From: an uncultured Chloroflexia bacterium
Lineage (GTDB): Bacteria > Chloroflexota > Anaerolineae > Ardenticatenales > Ardenticatenaceae
NCBI GenBank assembly: GCA_963845765.1
Contig: CAWJTI010000001.1
Location: forward strand, 395,107 to 419,106
DNA length: 24,000 nt
Reading direction: 5' to 3'
Shown: piece by piece, positions 4,522 through 19,185 of the stretch
Layout of the letters: each line of letters starts with the position of its first letter
How positions within the stretch are numbered: position 1 is the first letter of the stretch
Program-made: the position numbers and the translations under genes
The notes under the pieces: model-generated
Seen by the model: only the letters and a program-made list of their open reading frames with translations
Databases searched by the model: none
What the model was told of the DNA's origin: nothing

Positions 4522-4562
4522 GGTGGGGCGTAGTGAATGGTGAATCGTGAATGGTGAATGGG
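4521..4562. repeat. Heptamer tandem array, unit GTGAATG (4 units), preceded by GGGTGGGGCGTA
   Basis: gggtggggcgt agtgaat ggtgaat cgtgaat ggtgaat ggggttgg, starting directly after the stop codon of the PH-domain gene. The 16-mer at 4525-4540 recurs as a reverse complement at 13069-13084. Confidence 0.9.
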
Positions 4563-4634
4563 GTTGGCGCGGCAGCTAGCTGCGCACCTTTCCCGTTTTG
4601 GATCGGACGTGCGCCATTTGTGGGTCATTCACCC

Positions 4635-4667
4635 AAAAGCCTCCTGCTGGGTAGCAGGAGGCTTTTT
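4635..4667. terminator. Bidirectional rho-independent terminator between convergent genes
   Basis: aaaagcctcctgct-gggt-agcaggaggcttttt: a perfect 10-bp GC-rich stem with an A-tract on the 5' side and a T-tract on the 3' side. Confidence 0.85.
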
Positions 4668-4736
4668 CTGTTGCACGCCCTCGCAGAAAGAACCGCTCAG
4701 CCCCGAGCGAACTGCAAATCTATCTCCTGGCTCGCC

Positions 4737-4765
4737 CCTCTGTGCTCTCTGTGCTCTCTGTGGTG
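4737..4765. repeat. Short tandem repeat, 9-mer CTCTCTGTG (~3 units)
   Basis: cctctgtg ctctctgtg ctctctgtg gtg, read directly. It lies just downstream of the M23 gene stop. Confidence 0.8.
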
Positions 4766-4779
4766 AGCCGGTCGTATCC

Positions 4780-6405
4780 CTACCGACTCAAATAATCGAG
4801 CGGGTTGTAGCGATAGCCGTAGTACATCACCTCGAAGTGCAGGTGGGGACCGGTGGAGCGCCCGGTCGAGCCCATGAGCCCGATCAACTGGCCACGCTCC
4901 ACCCAGGTGCCGACCGGGTAGTACATGCCCGACAGGTGGGCGTAGCGGGTGGACCAGCCATTGTGATGGTCCACCACGATGGAAAAGCCATAGCCCTGAT
5001 CGTTCCACCCCGAAAACACAATCTCGCCCCGCTGCGCGGCGAAGATCGGCGTGCCCATCGCCGCCGCGATGTCGATGCCGCCATGCGTGTAGCCGTACAC
5101 CGTCGTGATCCACCCACCCGTGGGCCAACTCAGGTAGCCCTGGCCGCCGTTGTAGTTGATCTGCGGCGCGGCGGGGGCTGCCGCCTGCACGACCACTGCC
5201 TTGCGCCCGCCCGGCACCATGATGCGCTGCCCCACCTGGAGGAGCGAATCGACGCTTTCCAGATAGTTACCAGGGAACCACGCGATCAGCGCGGGGTCGA
5301 TGCCGCCATAGCGCTGCCCGATGCTTTGGAGCGTATCCCCCGCCTGCACCACGTGCAACACCCCGTCGAGCGGGGGGATGAGCAGCGACTGCTCCAGGCG
5401 CAGCAGTTCCGCCGCGCCATCCAACTCCTCGTTCGCCCACAGGATCGTCGTGGGTTGCAGCCCCAAGCGGGTGGCAAGACCGGCAATCGTATCGTTTTCG
5501 CGCACCACGTAGGGCTCGGGGTCGGTGCGCGCAGGCCAGAGGGCATAGCGACGGTCTTCCGGCAGCGCGACAGGCGGCGCGGCGATGGGCTGCGCGCGGT
5601 CGGGTGCGGCGAACTGCGCGGCGGCATCGGCAGGGAGGGTCAAAAAGCCATCGCCCAGGGTGCTCGTCACAGGATCGAATTCTTGCGGCGGCAACGCCTC
5701 GCGTGCCAGGGTGAGGGGGAGGGTGGGCTGCGCGCGACGCGGGGCCGCGCTCTCCGACGGGCGGCTCAGCGGCACGCGGCTGATGGCGAGGGGGGCCGCC
5801 CGCAGCACAAAGCTCGGCACGTCCGCCTCGGCAGCGGCCACGAGCACGGGGGCCACGTGCGCCCCCTGCTTGCTCGGCACCTCGGCCTGCCAGAGGAGCG
5901 ACGCGCCACGCTGCGGGGTGATCCCCGCGCGGCTCACCCCGAGCAGAAGGAGCGAGACAACGATCAGGGCGGCGGCGATCCCCCTGCCCCGCGTTGCGCG
6001 GGGGGCGGCGGGGGTGGCGCGCAGCCCCCGCACCAACTCATCGGCTAGTTCGGAAAGGTCCTGGCGGGGGTGGCGCAATGAGTGTACCAAACGATCGGAG
6101 GGGTGCCTGCGCGGCGTGGGGGCAGGCACGCTTGGCTCCGGGTGGGCTCTAAAAAAGGCGTGCACCTGCTCGCGCGACCACGCGACCGACTCGTGGATGG
6201 CCCCGCTCGCTTCCAGCCGCGCCGCCTTCTGCGCGCAGCGCAGCGACTCCAGCGGCTCCTCCGCGAGCCAGGAGCGCAGCAGCCAGCCATCAGCGAGGTG
6301 GGGCCACTGCTCGCTTAGGTGCAAAGCCAGAGCCTGGGCCTCGCTACGGCGGCCCGTCTGGATGGCGTGCTGTATCTGGTTGAAGGTGTGGGTAAAGCTG
6401 TCCAT
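4780..6405 (-). CDS. Membrane-anchored LysM-domain M23 family metallopeptidase (peptidoglycan DD-endopeptidase type)
   Basis: The C-terminal M23 core has HGGIDI (HxxxD) and GSTGRSTGPHLHFEV (HxH). Two LysM repeats are present (YVVRENDTIAGLATRLGL..., HVVQAGDTLQSIGQRYG...). There is one TM segment (AALIVVSLLLLGV) and a helical-repeat-like N-terminus. Confidence 0.9.
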   Translation of the reverse strand: MDSFTHTFNQIQHAIQTGRRSEAQALALHLSEQWPHLADGWLLRSWLAEEPLESLRCAQKAARLEASGAIHESVAWSREQVHAFFRAHPEPSVPAPTPRRHPSDRLVHSLRHPRQDLSELADELVRGLRATPAAPRATRGRGIAAALIVVSLLLLGVSRAGITPQRGASLLWQAEVPSKQGAHVAPVLVAAAEADVPSFVLRAAPLAISRVPLSRPSESAAPRRAQPTLPLTLAREALPPQEFDPVTSTLGDGFLTLPADAAAQFAAPDRAQPIAAPPVALPEDRRYALWPARTDPEPYVVRENDTIAGLATRLGLQPTTILWANEELDGAAELLRLEQSLLIPPLDGVLHVVQAGDTLQSIGQRYGGIDPALIAWFPGNYLESVDSLLQVGQRIMVPGGRKAVVVQAAAPAAPQINYNGGQGYLSWPTGGWITTVYGYTHGGIDIAAAMGTPIFAAQRGEIVFSGWNDQGYGFSIVVDHHNGWSTRYAHLSGMYYPVGTWVERGQLIGLMGSTGRSTGPHLHFEVMYYGYRYNPLDYLSR

Positions 6406-8480: not shown

Positions 8481-8515
8481 GACATGCTACTCCGCAAGGT
8501 CTGCTCATTAGCATA

Positions 8516-8947
8516 TTAGCTCTCATCCGAAACAAATTCATCATTATTGTTCTCATAGAACGTGAATTCTTCACGAATCCAGCGTTGGTTAGGCACAATT
8601 GCTTGGCGAAATGCCTGTAGTTTGGCCGCTAGTCTATCAGCATCTTGGTATGCCTGCCTAAGCAAGGTTGTGTCTTTAAGGTACTGGCGACGGTTGATAA
8701 TATGTTGACACGCTACGGTTTCTACAAGCGAACGAAGGGCCAGCCCTATAAAACGCGCCTGCTCCGCATCCGTTTGCCCGGTTGAGCCCTCAGCAATGTT
8801 GAGAGCCACCGACGTTGCCGCTCGCCGCAACTGTGAGGCCAAATTATAAGTTTCGCTTGGAGGCAACTTTTCAGCAATCGCATAGACCAGATCGATATAC
8901 TCCAATGCTAATGTCCAAACCTCTAATTTTTCAAACTTGAAGGGCAT
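8516..8947 (-). CDS. Four-helix-bundle protein (23S rRNA intervening-sequence protein family, PF05635/TIGR02436; same fold family as the DGR accessory protein Avd)
   Basis: N-terminus FEKLEVWTLALEYIDLVYAIAEKLPPSETYNLASQLRRAATSVALNIAEGS is the family signature. A strong SD (ggaggtga) lies upstream. The gene is visibly much more AT-rich than both neighbours. Confidence 0.85.
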   Translation of the reverse strand: MPFKFEKLEVWTLALEYIDLVYAIAEKLPPSETYNLASQLRRAATSVALNIAEGSTGQTDAEQARFIGLALRSLVETVACQHIINRRQYLKDTTLLRQAYQDADRLAAKLQAFRQAIVPNQRWIREEFTFYENNNDEFVSDES

Positions 8948-9066
8948 CCCTCACCTCCACGTTCATCTTTTTAGATCTATCCGTGTCGGTCGTCGCACCC
9001 AGAGGGTACCCGACGGTCGTCCGTCGTCGCGCCCAGAGGTGGGTTCCCGCCTTGCGGGTACTGATT

Positions 9067-13093: not shown

Positions 13094-13867
13094 TCAGAGG
13101 CGATGTACCACCCAGACATTGGGTTCGACATATAAGCCGAGATCGGCGCGGCGGTCGATGTGGACGGGGGCCAGTGCTCCCTTGACCAGATAGTCACCAC
13201 TTTCGGGAAAGCTCTGTCCGGTCCATTCCTCCCACTGCGTCACCGTCCCCTCAACCACCATGGAAGGATGCGCCAGACGCACGATTTCCCCACCCGCTCG
13301 CACATGCGCGCGCAGCCACGGATCTTCTGGTAGGCCATCGTCACGCTCCCACCACATGTAGCGCTGCATGGGCACCAGGGGGTACGCCTGCTTCTGCGTC
13401 GGGCGCACCGCCACGATCACGGCCCCAAAGCCATGGCCCCGCCCAAGGGCCTGTGCCGCTTGCAGCATCTTGTAGCTCACGCCCTGCCCCTGCGCCTCCG
13501 GGGAAATCGAGATTTCCAGGGCGACCAGGGTATTCGGCCCGATGCCCTTTGCGTGCCCCTCGGCCACTAGCTCCAAACTGTGCGCCCAGCCGATGGGTAG
13601 CTCCTCCACCTTCCCGCTCCACTGGAGGGGCGCACTTTGTAGCACCGCTACCGGCTCCCCTGCCGCATCCAGCAGGTAAAGTTGGTAGTCAGGGAAGAGA
13701 TCGCCCAGCACATGCCAGAGGCGATTGGCCGTGCGATCCTCGAACATGAAGGGGGGCCATAGCCGCTCCTTCTGCGCCCCGAAGCGCCGCGCCAGCTCCG
13801 GCTGCGCCTGTAAGGATACCAACGAGACTTCCTTGTTGTCGCTCTTCCCTTCTACGTTGTCCGCCAT
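13094..13867 (-). CDS. GNAT-like N-acetyltransferase family protein (tentative)
   Basis: The ORF has coherent composition. VALEISISPEAQGQGVSYKMLQAAQALGRGHGF resembles the GNAT acetyl-CoA (Q/R-x-x-G-x-G/A) motif. It is first in a co-oriented trio with the SRPBCC and ADH genes. Confidence 0.55.
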   Translation of the reverse strand: MADNVEGKSDNKEVSLVSLQAQPELARRFGAQKERLWPPFMFEDRTANRLWHVLGDLFPDYQLYLLDAAGEPVAVLQSAPLQWSGKVEELPIGWAHSLELVAEGHAKGIGPNTLVALEISISPEAQGQGVSYKMLQAAQALGRGHGFGAVIVAVRPTQKQAYPLVPMQRYMWWERDDGLPEDPWLRAHVRAGGEIVRLAHPSMVVEGTVTQWEEWTGQSFPESGDYLVKGALAPVHIDRRADLGLYVEPNVWVVHRL

Positions 13868-14214
13868 GGTTTCCTCTCCTTGTTGATGAGTGGTTGGGGA
13901 TTGACCCGCTACAAGCCATTTAAAAAACAGGGGATGCCGCCCATCGTAACGCTATACCACGCAGCTATGCCACCGCTAGCCGACAGGCTGTTGAATCTTG
14001 CCAGGTTTCTGGCGCGGCGGCGCGCTGTCCTCTCACCAGCTGCCGCGTGCGTGCGAGTGGCCTTATTTGAAAAAAGAGGACAATGGTCCTCTCAAGAGAT
14101 GTACCCCCTCTCCCATATAATTTCATGCAGCAAACTTTTATACTACTAAGCAACTTACCCCTCCCTTATGCGCCCACAAACCCTTGAAAGTAGCCGTGTA
14201 GTCGCACCTGCTTC

Positions 14215-14310
14215 AAGCGCACAGACGAAAAAGGCAAACCCATCGAGAGGTGGGGACGCAAAGCCACGGGTCCTACTGCCATTGCTGAGGATAGCCGGGT
14301 TGCCGACTCA
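14215..14310 (+). promoter_or_regulatory. c-di-GMP-I (GEMM-I) riboswitch aptamer
   Basis: gcgcacag..ggcaaaccCATC-GAGA-GGTGgggacgcaaagccacgggtcctactgccattgctgaggatagccgggttgccga. The conserved blocks GCAAACC, a GNRA-capped hairpin, GGGACGCAAAGCC, CCAUUGC and CGGGUUGCCGA occur in the order and spacing I recall for the V. cholerae Vc2 aptamer. GGCAA(A)CC pairs with GGGUUGCC as P1. Confidence 0.8.
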
Positions 14311-14340
14311 AGCACGAGAGAGTCTGCAATCTGGTTTTTT
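14295..14340 (+). terminator. Intrinsic terminator forming the riboswitch expression platform
   Basis: ccgggttgccgactc (14295-14309) pairs with gagtctgcaatctgg (14320-14334): 15 bp with one mismatch and two G-U pairs, a 10-nt loop, then T6 (14335-14340). The 5' arm reuses the aptamer 3' P1 strand. Confidence 0.65.
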
Positions 14341-14521
14341 GTTGCGCTTTCTCCACTGGATCGGCTTCTTCGTACACAGGGCTCCCAACATAAAAGGGGG
14401 AGATCGAAGAGAATGGCAGCCGCTCCTACAACGCAGCATCCCTACTGCCATCTGCTCTGTTCTGTGTTTGGCTAACAGCTCAGCATTCCGATCACTCACA
14501 ATGTAGTACAGGAGAAAACCC

Positions 14522-16126
14522 ATGAACAAGAAACGCGATAGTGTAACCCCTTTACCCCACAAACTGCTGTTCCACCTTTTGCTGGTAGTCACCCTGCTGG
14601 GCCAGTTTATACCCCTTGGCTGGCTGGGTACCGTCCACGCTGACCCCCCCGTAAGCAAAGTCCTGCCCCAACTCCAGCGCGACGCGACGGCACGTCGCAA
14701 TGAGACGTTCCGCGTGATTATCACGCGGGTAAACGGCAATCGTGGGGCGGACAACGCCGCGCAGGCGCAGGGCCAGAAGGTTCGGGATCTCCCCTTTGTA
14801 GATGGCTTCGTGCTCGAACTACCGGGACGAGCGATCGAGGCGCTCGGGCGAAATCCCCATATCAAGCTCATCACGCCGGATGCTGAAGTATTTTCTACCG
14901 ATGTGGAGGAGGCAAACCTTGGCACCCTCTTCAACCAGACGATTAACTCGGCAGGCTTGTGGTCGCCCGCTAGCGGGTCGAGCCTGACGGGTGCGGGGAT
15001 TGGCGTGGCGGTCCTCGATACTGGCATCACCGAGCGCGCCGATTGGAGGGGAGCCAACGGACAGAGCCGCGTCGTTGCCAACATGCTCTTCAACCCGCGG
15101 CTGGCCAGGACCGATGACGGCCACGGGCATGGCACGCACGTTGCCGGGATCATCGCGGGTAACTCCTGGTACCAGACATCCGCCGCCCTTCAGGGGAAAT
15201 ACATCGGTGTCGCACCCGAGGCAAATCTAATCAACGTGCGCGTCTCGGACGAACGGGGCAGGTCCCTCATCTCCGATGTCGTGTCAGCAATCGACTGGGT
15301 AGTCGCCAACCGCCAGACCTACAACATTCGCGTGATGAATTTGTCGCTCATTTCCAGTGTGCCAGAAAGCTACAAGACGAGCGTACTGGCGGCGGCGGTC
15401 GAGCGCGCCTGGTTCAACGGAATCTTCGTGGTCGTCGCGGCGGGCAATGCTGGCCCCAACACGATGATATACCCGCCCGCCAACGATCCGTTTGTGATCA
15501 CCGTTGGGGCGAGCGACCAGATGGGAACTACAAGTTGGGCCGATGACACCATTGCCCCCTGGTCCAGCTATGGGATCACCCAGGATGGCTTCATCAAACC
15601 CGACGTGGTGGCCCCGGGGCGCTATATCCCCTCGCCGCTCGCTTCCACCGCTAGTACCCTGGGCGTAACCTATCCGACCCGTATTGTGGACGGAAGCTAC
15701 ATCTGGATGTCCGGCACCTCGATGGCCGCACCGGTCGTCTCGGGTCTAGCTGCCCTGGCCTTCCAGGCCCACCCCGAGTGGACCCCCGATCAGGTGAAGT
15801 GGCTCCTGAAACAGACAGCCAACCCGCTGCCGAATGCCCAGCTCGTGCCGCAATCGCAGGGAGCTGGGTCGGTTAACGCAGCAGCGGTTACCGGTTACGC
15901 GCTGACCCCCGGCTTTGCCAATCAGGGTCTTATCATCAACAATTACCTGGTCCCCAGCACGGGCGGCATCGTGTATGACAGTGCCTCGTGGAGCACCGCC
16001 AGTTGGAGCACCGCCAGTTGGAGCACCGCCAGTTGGAGCACCGCTAGCTGGAGCACCGCCAGTTGGAGCACCGCCAACGAGAGCACGGCGAGCGCCAATG
16101 TTGCCCAAGCCGTCGAAGTTGAGTAA
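14522..16126 (+). CDS. Secreted S8 (subtilisin-like) serine peptidase with I9 propeptide and a C-terminal (SWSTA)n repeat tail
   Basis: Signal peptide (…LGWLGTVHA), I9-like propeptide, catalytic Asp (AVLDTGI), His (HGHGTHVAGIIAG), oxyanion Asn (AAGNAGPN) and Ser (SGTSMAAPVVSG). An aggag SD lies 8 nt upstream. Confidence 0.93.
   Translation: MNKKRDSVTPLPHKLLFHLLLVVTLLGQFIPLGWLGTVHADPPVSKVLPQLQRDATARRNETFRVIITRVNGNRGADNAAQAQGQKVRDLPFVDGFVLELPGRAIEALGRNPHIKLITPDAEVFSTDVEEANLGTLFNQTINSAGLWSPASGSSLTGAGIGVAVLDTGITERADWRGANGQSRVVANMLFNPRLARTDDGHGHGTHVAGIIAGNSWYQTSAALQGKYIGVAPEANLINVRVSDERGRSLISDVVSAIDWVVANRQTYNIRVMNLSLISSVPESYKTSVLAAAVERAWFNGIFVVVAAGNAGPNTMIYPPANDPFVITVGASDQMGTTSWADDTIAPWSSYGITQDGFIKPDVVAPGRYIPSPLASTASTLGVTYPTRIVDGSYIWMSGTSMAAPVVSGLAALAFQAHPEWTPDQVKWLLKQTANPLPNAQLVPQSQGAGSVNAAAVTGYALTPGFANQGLIINNYLVPSTGGIVYDSASWSTASWSTASWSTASWSTASWSTASWSTANESTASANVAQAVEVE
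15989..16078 (+). repeat. Six near-perfect 15-bp tandem repeats (TGGAGCACCGCCAGT) encoding (WSTAS)6
   Basis: Read directly. Copies 4 and 6 differ by 2 nt each and the others are identical. Confidence 0.95.
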
Positions 16127-16154
16127 GCTATACTTCTACTTCTGAGTGGAGCCC

Positions 16155-16210
16155 AGCCCGTGCCATTCCACCTGAGTAAAACTCAAGGAGAGTGACACGG
16201 GCTTCTTTGT
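16155..16210 (+). terminator. Terminator candidate after the protease gene
   Basis: agcccgtg (16155-16162) pairs with cacgggct (16196-16203). There is an inner tgagt-aaa-actca hairpin, and the 3' side is T-rich (tctttgt). Confidence 0.45.
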
Positions 16211-16392
16211 CCCCTTACATCATATCGAGCCACTTTTAGAAGGACCAGTTCCATTTGGAGCGCTCCACATCCCGTATCCCACACTTGGGAAGATATCTCA
16301 CCCCGCTTGTTGTTGGCAGGGCTTGCTCCCTACCAGAAGCATAAGGGTGATTTGCTTCCTGGAGGTGGGATTCTTGGTAGATAGCCCCGACT

Positions 16393-19185
16393 ATGAACCA
16401 GACCCCTCGCCGTGCGCAGCTTTACCTACTCGCCTGCTTCCTGGCAGGTAGCATCGCTCTTGGGTGGCTCCTTACGAGCTACCAGCGTGCTCTCACCTTC
16501 CAAGACGCGCTTCTCGCTTTGAGCCTCGGCATCATCGCCTCTTTGTGCCAGGTGTTGGTCGTAGCGCGGGTCGGAACAGCCGGTCAACGGTCTGACCACC
16601 TTACCCTATCTCCCCTCTTCGCTGCGGTCTTACTGCTGCCCCACCCACTGCTGGCGGCAGTCATCATCTGGACCTTTATCCCGGAATGGTACCTGCGCCG
16701 CCGCTCCTGGTACGGGCAGGTGTTCAACATTGCTGCATTTTTGTTGGCAGCCGTCCTCGCCCGCCTCACGCTTGAACAGGTGACAGGCTCGTACGAGCCG
16801 GTGATGATCGAGGCAGGCCTGGCGCTGTGGAAAAAGTCAGCCGCCGTGTTACTGGCGCTCGTGATTTTCGAGGGAATCCAGGTTCTGTTGCTTGCCCTCG
16901 TCCTCAAGCTCGCGCGCGGCCAATCTTTCCGCACGAGTGGTCTCTTCGCCACCGATAGCCTGCTGCTTGAGGTAGCCCTGCTCTGCATGGGGCTCGGCTT
17001 CGCAATCTCGTGGAGCGTTGCCCCCCTCTACGGCCTTCTCTCGCTCGTCCCGCTCGTGCTGATCTTCCAAGCGCTCCACGTGCCCAACCTCAAAGAGCAG
17101 GCAGCCACCGACCCCAAAACCGGCCTTGCCAACATGCGTCGCTTCAACGAGATGGCGACGCGCGAGATTGAGCGCGCGCAGAGCAATCACCACCCGCTCA
17201 GCATCCTGATGTGTGACCTGGACTATCTGCGCAACATCAACAACACCTACGGGCACGAGGCGGGGGATATCGTTTTGCTGGGGATCGCCGACACCCTCGT
17301 GCGACATGTGCGCGACAGCGACGTGGCCGCACGCTTCGGGGGCGAGGAGTTTGTGATCCTGCTACCGAATACGGGGATCGAGGGTGCCTACCACCTTGCC
17401 GAAAGGATCCGCAACGACCTCGCCTCTTCCTTCTTCGATGTGGGCCACTACAAGGGGCCGATTGGCGCGACGGTAAGCATCGGGGCGGCGAGCTTCCCGC
17501 GCGACGCCAACACCCTGGATGCCCTCATGCGGGAAGCGGATTTGGCGGTGTACCAGGCCAAGCGCGAAGGGCGGAACCGCGTAGTGATGGCGGGGCAGGC
17601 GAGCCGCGAGCTGGCGGCGCGCTGGGCCAGCGAGCATCTGATCGCCCCCCATGCCGTTGTCACGCCCGCGCAAAGCGGAGAAAAGGAGCGCCCCTTCGAG
17701 AAGGCGATCAACAAGGTGACCGGCTCCTCGCTGGAAGGGGCGGAGCGGCGCACGCTTATCAACAACCAGCGCGCGGCTAATCAGAAAGGCGCGGCACACC
17801 CCACAGGTGAGCCGCAGCCTGCTGGCCCCTCGCGAAAGTTGCTTCTCGCGATAGGAGCGACGCTTGTACTGGGGCTGCTCGGCCTCGTGCCAGGTCAAGG
17901 GCTGGCCGACATCCCGTGGAGCGTGCTCCTGCTTTTTGGCATTCTGACCCTGCTCGCCGAGCAACTGGCCGTGGCAAGCGTCGGGCAAGGACGAATTTCC
18001 GTCTCGGTCGTCACGATCCTGGCGGCAAGCTTCCTCACGCACGAGTTGGGCATCCTGGTGACGGTGGTGGCTGCCGTGGGCTCCATGGCGATCAAGGCGC
18101 GTAAGCTCTCGTACAAGATGGCGTTTAATTTGGGAAATGTGTTGCTGGCCGCCGAGGCCGCGCATTGGGTTTTCGGGCTGCTCGTTGGCCCGACGCGCGA
18201 GCAGGGTGCCATCTTGCAGGTGCTTCTGGCCGCGGCGCTGGCCGGGCTGGTGTACCATGGGGTGAATCAGCTGCTGCTCTGCATCGTGCGGGGCATGGCC
18301 GAAGAGCGAAACCCGATAGAAATATGGTATACCGAGTATCGTTGGCTCTGGCCGCACTATGTGGTGCTCGGGGCGCTCGCCGCCATTCTGGCGGTGGGCT
18401 ACGATGTATTTGGCACGGTGGGTGTCATCTCCCTCACCGCGCCGGTCGCGATGATGCACCTCGCGATGAAGCAATATCTGGATCACACGCGCGTCTATGT
18501 GGATGAGCTGCGCACGATGAATGACCGCCTGAGCGAGTCCTACGAGGCCACGCTGGAGGCGCTGTCGCGCGCGCTCGACACGCGCGATGACGAAACCGAG
18601 GCCCATTCTAAGCGCGTGGCGCATTACACCCGTTTAATAGCGGAGCGGAGCGGGGTGCCGGACAAGGAGATGGCCGACATCACGCGCGGGGCATTGCTCC
18701 ACGACATCGGCAAGATCGGGGTGCCCGACGCGATCTTGCTCAAGGCCGGCCCGCTCACCCCCGCCGAGCACGCGACGATGCGCCAGCACCCGATCATTGG
18801 CTATCGCATGATCGTCAATATCCCGTTTTTGTCGGAGGCGGCGCAGGTGGTGCTCCACCACCACGAGGCCTTCGATGGCTCAGGCTACCCCAGCGGGCTG
18901 TCCGGCAAGAGCGTCCCCATCGGCGCGCGCATCTTCGCGGTGGCCGACACCTTTGACGCCATGACCTCTGACCGCCCCTACCGCCGCGCCCTGTCCGTGG
19001 AAGCCGCGCGCGGCGAGATTTCGCGCTGCAGCGGTACCCAGTTCGACCCCCAGGTGGTAGAAACCTTTTTGACAATTCCCCTTGAGGAACTGATGGGCAT
19101 GATAGAGATCTTTTCGCCCGCTACCGATCAGGGAATCGGGTGGCCAACGCCGGCGGCGCTGCAAGCCAGCGTGGGCGCGCCCTGA
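16393..19185 (+). CDS. Polytopic membrane GGDEF (diguanylate cyclase) + HD-GYP (c-di-GMP phosphodiesterase) bifunctional protein
   Basis: Domain order: ~7 TM, then GGDEF (DLDYLRNINNTYGHEAGD, active site RFGGEEF, I-site RDSD at PleD-like spacing), then a second block of ~6-7 TM, then HD-GYP (HSKRVAHY, LLHDIGKIGVPD, HHHEAFDGSGYPSGL, ADTFDAMTSDRPYR). Confidence 0.93.
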   Translation: MNQTPRRAQLYLLACFLAGSIALGWLLTSYQRALTFQDALLALSLGIIASLCQVLVVARVGTAGQRSDHLTLSPLFAAVLLLPHPLLAAVIIWTFIPEWYLRRRSWYGQVFNIAAFLLAAVLARLTLEQVTGSYEPVMIEAGLALWKKSAAVLLALVIFEGIQVLLLALVLKLARGQSFRTSGLFATDSLLLEVALLCMGLGFAISWSVAPLYGLLSLVPLVLIFQALHVPNLKEQAATDPKTGLANMRRFNEMATREIERAQSNHHPLSILMCDLDYLRNINNTYGHEAGDIVLLGIADTLVRHVRDSDVAARFGGEEFVILLPNTGIEGAYHLAERIRNDLASSFFDVGHYKGPIGATVSIGAASFPRDANTLDALMREADLAVYQAKREGRNRVVMAGQASRELAARWASEHLIAPHAVVTPAQSGEKERPFEKAINKVTGSSLEGAERRTLINNQRAANQKGAAHPTGEPQPAGPSRKLLLAIGATLVLGLLGLVPGQGLADIPWSVLLLFGILTLLAEQLAVASVGQGRISVSVVTILAASFLTHELGILVTVVAAVGSMAIKARKLSYKMAFNLGNVLLAAEAAHWVFGLLVGPTREQGAILQVLLAAALAGLVYHGVNQLLLCIVRGMAEERNPIEIWYTEYRWLWPHYVVLGALAAILAVGYDVFGTVGVISLTAPVAMMHLAMKQYLDHTRVYVDELRTMNDRLSESYEATLEALSRALDTRDDETEAHSKRVAHYTRLIAERSGVPDKEMADITRGALLHDIGKIGVPDAILLKAGPLTPAEHATMRQHPIIGYRMIVNIPFLSEAAQVVLHHHEAFDGSGYPSGLSGKSVPIGARIFAVADTFDAMTSDRPYRRALSVEAARGEISRCSGTQFDPQVVETFLTIPLEELMGMIEIFSPATDQGIGWPTPAALQASVGAP

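Follow-up and report, generated by a model that had tools for sequence, protein, structure and literature searches.

The stretch of DNA analysed here, 24,000 nucleotides (nt) from an uncultured Chloroflexia bacterium (contig CAWJTI010000001.1, positions 395,107 to 419,106; hereafter the window, in whose own coordinates positions are given), carries on its forward strand a predicted class I riboswitch aptamer for cyclic diguanylate (c-di-GMP), a gene for a secreted AprX-like subtilase of family Peptidase_S8 (hereafter S8), and a gene for a membrane protein of 930 amino acids (aa) with GGDEF, MASE9 and HD-GYP domains (Table 1). We report that the aptamer most likely forms part of a transcriptional ON switch for the protease gene, and that the membrane protein is the best candidate enzyme for setting the c-di-GMP level that this switch would read. 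The initial annotation of the stretch, made from its letters, had a secreted subtilisin-like protease following the aptamer; this agrees with the Peptidase_S8 match, with the presence of the catalytic motifs DTG, HGTH and GTSMA in the translation and with a signal-peptide-like segment at about aa 1–40 (14522–14641), K/R-rich, then hydrophobic and ending in VHA followed by D (read from the translation). The protease is a member of a large Chloroflexota family of the AprX-like type, in which its best matches are 57–70% identical.

Scanning of the full 24 kb window with cmscan at Rfam gathering thresholds, with overlaps within a clan suppressed by the clan filter, returned a sole match, to family RF03167 (c-di-GMP-I-GGC, clan CL00126), scoring 75.5 bits (gathering score 59; E 1.6e-16; model positions 1–80 of 80). 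A second match from the same clan also reached its own gathering score and was masked by the filter, so that its bit score was not displayed; this was presumably RF01051, whose gathering score is 35. The clan match upheld the GEMM-I (c-di-GMP-I) aptamer that had been proposed for the 5' leader of the S8 gene, and every sequence block then quoted for it was found in the window. In an alignment of 13 sequences (A4, comprising the window and twelve other aptamers), 93.8% of the cells were paired and 8 of the 20 pairs showed compensatory changes on both sides, P1 being the weak helix (58% paired). These values were reached by none of 500 shuffles, which excludes chance for the aptamer, and slid registers paired at only 28–45%. 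Likewise, our own covariance model of the subfamily (R1) gave the window aptamer 94.2 bits.

No second (tandem) aptamer, nor any other Rfam family, was found by Rfam in 13800–16500 at E ≤ 1. With filters off, the best non-self score of R1 in the window was 5.7 bits (E 0.46), at 14387–14450; this is not significant, and we rejected it as a feature. Separately, an exact 11-nt repeat, CCTACTGCCAT, occurs at 14272–14282 and 14441–14451 and copies part of the aptamer P3 loop; together with the R1 match, it may be the relic of a second aptamer.

The nucleotides of the Vibrio cholerae Vc2 aptamer that contact c-di-GMP are G20, A47 and C92 (PMC4744006, PMC5888326). Their equivalents are present in the window (Table 1), and the three columns are invariant across the whole of A4. 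Around position 14260, the window reads ACGCAAAGCC, as compared with ACGCGAAgCc in the RF03167 consensus and ACGCAAAgCc in that of RF01051. ACGCAAA occurs in the window and in all aligned relatives, none of which has, at the A47 position, the G that characterizes the GGC variant. The name GGC we take to stand for G20/G47/C92, which agrees with the comparison of both Rfam consensus lines. Similarly, the window has G14233 where c-AMP-GMP (GEMM-Ib) riboswitches have A at position 20, a residue whose role is treated in PMC6140456; this G argues against a sensor of the cGAMP type. Judged by its ligand-contact nucleotides, the window element is a canonical c-di-GMP-I aptamer and, by the defining nucleotide, not a member of RF03167, and it is predicted to bind c-di-GMP. 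The high score with RF03167 stems from helices that are nearly the same in sequence and from a short P3, and not from a variant pocket.

Folding of 14215–14350 and of 14285–14345 produced a hairpin of 15 bp with a 10-nt loop, continued by a run of six U (Table 1). The 5' arm of the hairpin, 14294–14309, consists of the P3 3' strand, the C92 equivalent and the P1 3' strand, so that aptamer and terminator are mutually exclusive. Taken by themselves, the first 100 nt form P2 and P3; the best fold with the aptamer pairs enforced has −24.0 kcal/mol, and the unconstrained fold, which contains the terminator, −41.8 kcal/mol. A metagenome scan with the 41-nt aptamer pattern yielded 16 loci, and the same overlap of aptamer and terminator, with a U-rich tract, was found in five other distinct leaders (L086/L092, L091, L093, L097 and L100). 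Those of L091 and L093 precede S8 proteases, and that of L092 a GAF-HD-GYP phosphodiesterase. In an alignment of six sequences that includes the window, the terminator helix was 97.8% paired, versus 22–42% in slid registers, and one pair was compensatory, from U-A to C-G, in two sequences; as covariation this is modest evidence, since the aptamer constrains the 5' arm as well.

From this layout we infer the following mechanism. In the ligand-free state, 14294–14309 would pair with 14320–14335, forming the 15-bp hairpin followed by U6, and transcription would stop about 180 nt 5' of the start codon. With c-di-GMP bound, the shared strand would be kept in P3/P1 and the ligand pocket; held there, it would leave the terminator blocked and the protease gene would be transcribed. 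The window riboswitch is, most likely, a transcriptional ON switch acting by antitermination. An ON switch upstream of the GAF-HD-GYP gene of L092 would give a sensible homeostatic negative feedback.

In the 930-aa protein, Pfam E-values were 1.4e-44 for GGDEF, 4.5e-41 for HD_5 and 1.6e-07 for MASE9; TIGR00254 matched the GGDEF domain with 162 bits, and the N-terminal multi-transmembrane (multi-TM) region gave a weak MASE9 match of 19.9 bits, under the cut-off. The GGDEF site reads RDSD-VAARF-GGEEF, with the RxxD I-site five residues before the GGEEF motif, and the HD-GYP motifs HDIGK, HHHEAFDGSGYP and DTFDAMTSDRPYR are all found and are kept in the orthologues. GGEEF is kept in nine of the nine orthologues that have the domain, and the I-site less strictly. 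With both motif sets intact, the protein is a predicted diguanylate cyclase and c-di-GMP phosphodiesterase, in line with the earlier proposal that the gene next to S8 encodes both a c-di-GMP synthase and a hydrolase. It would thereby be the best candidate for setting the c-di-GMP level read by the riboswitch.

We then compared the locus with its relatives, among which L001–L080 are the matches listed from a genome-contig scan, mostly distant Acidobacteriota S8 loci. Aptamers 5' of S8 orthologues or paralogues were found by Rfam in L081–L084 (in tandem in L084), L002, L007 and L010; R1, run against all 100 loci, added L016, L026 (in tandem), L035, L057 and L058 from Armatimonadota and L029 from Acidobacteriota, and L091 and L093 have the same pairing. 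Riboswitch and S8 are thus paired in Chloroflexota, in Armatimonadota and in one Acidobacteriota locus. A gene with GGDEF and/or HD-GYP lies beside the pair in at least seven other loci (L081/L082, L083, L084, L002, L010 and L057). In L081/L082 (65% identity) and L083 (62–63% identity), an orthologous GGDEF/HD-GYP gene of 926–940 aa lies 3' of S8 on the same strand, and the outer flanks of these loci are unrelated. The order riboswitch, S8, GGDEF/HD-GYP was found again in other Chloroflexota, and its recurrence between different outer flanks links the three components beyond chance. In L084, two tandem S8 paralogues and the enzyme gene are divergently oriented; L057, from Armatimonadota, has two S8 paralogues, each with an aptamer 5' of it, and convergent GGDEF and HD-GYP coding segments alongside. 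The order in L002 is riboswitch, S8, MASE9/HD-GYP, with no GGDEF, and in L010 riboswitch, S8 and GGDEF only.

Among the matches listed, 27 of the 80 genome loci (for example L015, L044, L048, L061 and L079) have an HD-GYP gene no more than 6 kb from S8; these 27 belong to several phyla and include many Acidobacteriota. In a control set of distant Acidobacteriota S8 loci, Rfam detected no riboswitch in 11 S8/HD-GYP loci, and R1 detected none in the set, L029 excepted. From these distributions, the S8/HD-GYP pairing looks older and wider than its link with the riboswitch. The HD-GYP proteins linked to S8 often have MASE9 and sometimes GGDEF, and the pairs without riboswitch include loci of Acidobacteriota, Clostridia and Symbiobacteriaceae.

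Tandem aptamers or complete riboswitches are frequent 5' of S8 paralogues (Table 1), and on one chromosome from Armatimonadota (L058) three S8 genes in a row each have a tandem aptamer pair 5' of them. An identical 41-nt aptamer core also occurs 5' of other genes, in L092 (the same as L086), L094, L088, L095 and L098. The genes behind this aptamer subfamily include a GAF-HD-GYP phosphodiesterase, GH26 glycoside hydrolases, a secreted transglutaminase-like protein and a further set, in which a small membrane open reading frame (ORF) is followed by a 935-aa GGDEF/HD-GYP gene.

Taken as a whole, we consider it probable that the locus combines a canonical GEMM-I aptamer, acting as an ON switch for the S8 mRNA, with a neighbouring GGDEF/MASE9/HD-GYP enzyme that is the best candidate for setting c-di-GMP. 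Several observations weigh against this. The top model is nominally that of the GGC variant, and the RF01051 score is masked by the clan filter. A consensus terminator scan missed the hairpin (its loop has 10 nt and the limit of the scan is 8), and the lone TATAAT is the sole promoter cue. Expression platforms vary among orthologues, those of L083 and L084 having no obvious terminator, and the closest orthologous leader, that of L081/L082, corresponds to the window leader with 22 nt, CUCUAGGUAGAGCCGAGUUAUG, inserted between the hairpin 3' arm and the U tract. This insertion gives rise to a separate, perfect terminator in competition with the aptamer-strand hairpin; it uses as its 5' arm the partner segment of the aptamer strand, and an OFF layout would thereby replace the ON layout. 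Because of the insertion and of the L083 and L084 platforms, the predicted polarity is not uniform across the family. Finally, synteny is the one line of evidence that would couple the riboswitch and S8 to the GGDEF/HD-GYP gene.

We weighed these points against four alternatives, two of which concern the switch itself. If the aptamer were a true c-di-GMP-I-GGC variant, with a ligand other than c-di-GMP, the first place of RF03167 in the window would be explained, as would its being the top family for most orthologous leaders; however, the sole ligand-contact position that differs between the two consensuses has A in the window and in all aligned relatives, the G20 and C92 equivalents are canonical as well, another model of the clan passed its own gathering score, and L002, a close relative, has its best score with RF01051 (72 bits), which together make this identity very improbable. 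The ranking nonetheless represents an annotation pitfall: RF03167 outranks RF01051 on aptamers with the canonical A47 in the window and in most orthologous leaders, and by winning the clan competition it would lead automated annotation to mislabel the whole subfamily as a variant of uncertain ligand. An OFF switch or translational control, with the hairpin and U6 not being the regulated element, would agree with the negative regulation of the published protease case, Clostridioides difficile zmpI (PMC6366702), with the classical OFF layout that its extra perfect terminator confers on the L081/L082 leader and with the 180 nt between the U tract and the ATG, which leave room for more elements. 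Yet the window has no second terminator, its only hairpin with a U-run uses the aptamer 3' strand, the same layout is kept in five other leaders and no pairing of the aptamer with AGGAGA was seen; we thus regard control of this kind as improbable. If, conversely, both the ON polarity of the window and the sign inversion in L081/L082 were confirmed, the two leaders would be a compact natural example of a small indel rewiring riboswitch logic.

The other two alternatives concern the enzyme gene. It might be a chance neighbour, with only the riboswitch and S8 forming a functional unit, since these genomes have many genes for c-di-GMP enzymes, the outer flanks vary from one genome to the next, and L007, L026, L058 and L091 have no such gene within the sequence covered. 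Orthologues with 47–60% identity over about 900 aa nevertheless adjoin S8 in five Chloroflexota loci with unrelated flanks, and the proximity of HD-GYP to S8 noted above as a raw count, often with MASE9, extends over several phyla; mere chance appears quite unlikely to us. At the other extreme, riboswitch, S8 and GGDEF/HD-GYP could be a single operon, in which c-di-GMP would govern the protease and, through read-through, its own turnover enzyme. Strand and order are the same in the window, L081/L082, L083, L002 and L010, in L081 and L083 the stretch between the genes gave no terminator in consensus scans, and the same riboswitch subfamily lies directly 5' of turnover genes in L092 (GAF-HD-GYP) and, in L094, 5' of a small ORF followed by GGDEF-HD-GYP. 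Against an operon stand the stable hairpin and UCUUUGU right after the S8 stop codon, the spacers between S8 and the enzyme gene (267 nt in the window and 267–630 nt across loci) and the gene orientations in L084 and L057. The hairpin was found in the fold of 16120–16230 (−36 kcal/mol, z-score −3.4); its U tract is weak, and it was not called by the consensus terminator scan. No structured RNA was detected in the spacer by Rfam (within 13800–16500). We therefore hold a single operon to be somewhat unlikely. With a divergent orientation in L084 and a convergent one in L057, the enzyme gene cannot be co-transcribed with S8 there, and the linkage is independent of co-transcription: riboswitch, S8 and enzyme form a conserved neighbourhood, not necessarily an operon, and the GGDEF/HD-GYP gene probably has its own promoter.

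Table 1. Features of the riboswitch locus and of related leaders. Coordinates are those of the window unless a locus is named.
Feature	Coordinates	Strand	Basis
Candidate −10 element TATAAT, about 100 nt 5' of the aptamer, tentative	14116..14121	+	Read from sequence
c-di-GMP-I riboswitch aptamer: P1, P2 capped by GAGA tetraloop, P3	14224..14308	+	RF03167, model R1, covariation on A4
G, equivalent of Vc2 G20, which contacts one ligand guanine	14233	+	Unpaired, just 5' of P2 in the cmscan alignment; role from PMC4744006, PMC5888326
A, equivalent of Vc2 A47; G in RF03167 (GGC) consensus	14260	+	cmscan alignment, consensus comparison
C, equivalent of Vc2 C92, the Watson-Crick partner of the other ligand guanine	14303	+	Unpaired GC between P3 and P1, cmscan structure line
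Predicted terminator hairpin GCCGGGUUGC-c-GACUC / loop AAGCACGAGA / GAGUC-u-GCAAUCUGGU	14294..14335	+	Minimum-energy folds; conserved in five other leaders
U6 tract completing the predicted intrinsic terminator	14335..14340	+	TTTTTTG directly 3' of hairpin; U-rich tracts at the same place in five related leaders
Shine-Dalgarno-like AGGAGA, 6 nt 5' of ATG	14510..14515	+	Read from sequence
Secreted AprX-like subtilase (Peptidase_S8), 534 aa	14522..16126	+	Pfam E 9e-52
15-nt tandem repeat encoding C-terminal (A)SWST pentapeptide repeats	15989..16076	+	TRF period 15, 5.9 copies, 94% matches
Long hairpin 3' of S8 stop codon, then UCUUUGU; possible terminator between genes	16155..16203	+	Fold of 16120-16230
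Membrane protein, 930 aa	16393..19185	+	Pfam and NCBIfam matches
Domains of the 930-aa protein: N-terminal multi-TM region (weak MASE9), GGDEF, MASE9, HD-GYP	GGDEF aa 237-396; MASE9 aa 515-678; HD-GYP aa 723-888		
Insertion region of L081/L082, compared with window 14294-14343	L081 5800-5870; L082 335-405		
Tandem aptamers or complete riboswitches	L084 3409-3686, 5646-5923; L058 5389-5724, 7927-8261, 10582-10910; L026 5511-5814		
Tandem aptamers or complete riboswitches	L010 5608-5846; L091 4267-4513; L097 216-461; L098 944-1176		

A consensus scan called no promoter 5' of the aptamer, where TATAAT has a poor −35 element; relatives have TAnnnT elements 29–117 nt 5' of their aptamers. Further 5', at 14069–14093, lies the perfect palindrome AGAGGAC-AATG-GTCCTCT, preceded by A6, which on the − strand has the shape of an intrinsic terminator. 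The intergenic region is divergent, with no − strand gene to terminate, and the palindrome, which lies about 25 nt 5' of TATAAT (14116), may be a regulator-binding site.

In all phyla sampled, AprX-like S8 proteins have C-terminal tandem repeats, with a unit of 5–6 residues built on a single aromatic one, and tails of this kind were seen in the window, L091, L007, L010, L035, L048, L006, L009, L044/L061 and L058. Examples are ASWST x6 (window), NLAWD x8, SVNWG x7, QAIWG(S/T/N) x12, SAIWGT, NAYWE and NVFFD, and in Armatimonadota and Acidobacteriota the repeats are often followed by a conserved VDLSS-AI-GE motif. Neither Pfam nor NCBIfam gave a model matching the repeat tail, whose units look like pentapeptide repeats with a central Trp.

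The two intergenic regions flanking the locus have a GC content of 0.53 and 0.52, as compared with 0.51–0.55 in the other intergenic regions of the window, and GC at third codon positions (GC3) is 0.74 in S8 and 0.80 in the GGDEF/HD-GYP gene, with 0.76–0.88 in the neighbouring genes. The initial annotation had described this stretch and its non-coding flanks as less GC-rich than the rest: this is only weakly true, the intergenic GC being the same as in other intergenic regions of the window. The accessory origin at which it had seen a hint in the GC content was rejected, because intergenic GC is ordinary, GC3 is only slightly low and the surroundings contain no mobile-element genes; the locus is surrounded by genes of ordinary chromosomal kinds, namely oxidoreductases, ABC exporters, GNAT, endonuclease III and LacI. 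The real GC outlier of the window is 8501–9000 (GC 0.478), where a small gene assigned to the family '23S rRNA-intervening sequence protein' (8516–8947, − strand) lies between two ABC exporter genes. Elsewhere, an ORF on the + strand (4558–6048) has no Pfam match and an atypical GC by codon position (0.83 at the first position, GC1, and a GC3 of 0.69); it is overlapped by a − strand ORF (4780–6405) with LysM and Peptidase_M23 domains, which is probably the real gene.

A closed feedback circuit from the extracellular space to RNA could be imagined, in which the enzyme would sense the effect of the protease, or the same surface cue, and set a local c-di-GMP level, through which the riboswitch would adjust protease expression. 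The S8/HD-GYP pair (27 of the 80 listed loci) would be the ancient core, the riboswitch would have been added in Chloroflexota and Armatimonadota, and small indels in the platform could flip the sign of regulation between close relatives, as L081/L082 suggests. This scheme is speculative, and we consider it unlikely.

Among known systems, the aptamer resembles RF01051 (V. cholerae Vc2 and Vc1) in its three-helix architecture and in the GNRA tetraloop on P2 (PMC4744006), and it shares with this family the blocks GGCAAACC, GGGACGCAAAGCC and UGCCGA and the equivalents of G20, A47 and C92. It differs in its distal P3, which is short and lacks the CUAAG...UAUG receptor of the RF01051 consensus, and for this reason RF03167 outscores RF01051 on the window; its host, a member of Chloroflexota, and its target, an S8 protease, also set it apart from Vc2 and Vc1. 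Compared with the GGC variant of RF03167, helix sequences and lengths are nearly identical, and the difference is A14260 in place of G.

The Bacillus subtilis pbuE (ydhL) adenine riboswitch is of the transcriptional ON type, with the aptamer 3' strand forming part of the terminator. The window leader resembles this type in its two-state design, in which the ligand-stabilised aptamer and the terminator share a strand and there is no separate antiterminator, whereas aptamer class and ligand differ and the function of the window element is predicted from its sequence.

The initial annotation had regarded direct riboswitch control of a protease beside its own c-di-GMP enzyme as an unusually self-contained arrangement. 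This cannot be maintained, because riboswitch-controlled S8 paralogues are common in these phyla, often with tandem aptamers, and a riboswitch-controlled protease has a published precedent: in C. difficile, the leader of zmpI (CD630_28300), the gene for the secreted protease ZmpI/PPEP-1, contains a class I c-di-GMP riboswitch (PMC6366702). There, as in the window, a class I riboswitch leads a secreted protease gene; the zmpI product, however, is a zinc metalloprotease under negative regulation (PMC6366702), whereas the window encodes a subtilase for which positive regulation is predicted. As to the enzyme, phosphodiesterases with MASE9 and HD-GYP include Thermotoga maritima TM1467 and Streptomyces venezuelae HdgA, as described in bioRxiv 10.1101/2021.11.05.467447. 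The window protein shares with them a MASE9 module directly before an HD-GYP domain with all metal-binding motifs, and differs by an extra multi-TM region and an active-looking GGDEF domain with I-site fused upstream; the order membrane region, GGDEF, MASE9, HD-GYP is not among the architectures in the passages of that source consulted.

We found no literature linking c-di-GMP riboswitches to subtilases or to Chloroflexota, in a search of incomplete coverage, which makes this weak evidence of novelty. To our knowledge, c-di-GMP signalling has hardly been studied in either Chloroflexota or Armatimonadota. The locus offers a testable c-di-GMP output, in which the RNA would be the receptor, the secreted subtilase the effector and the adjoining protein a candidate for a dedicated synthase/hydrolase, and this trio recurs from genome to genome. 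It leaves the mechanism of class I c-di-GMP riboswitches as it is known, and is, compared with the systems above, a well-conserved example of a known switch type and not new in kind.

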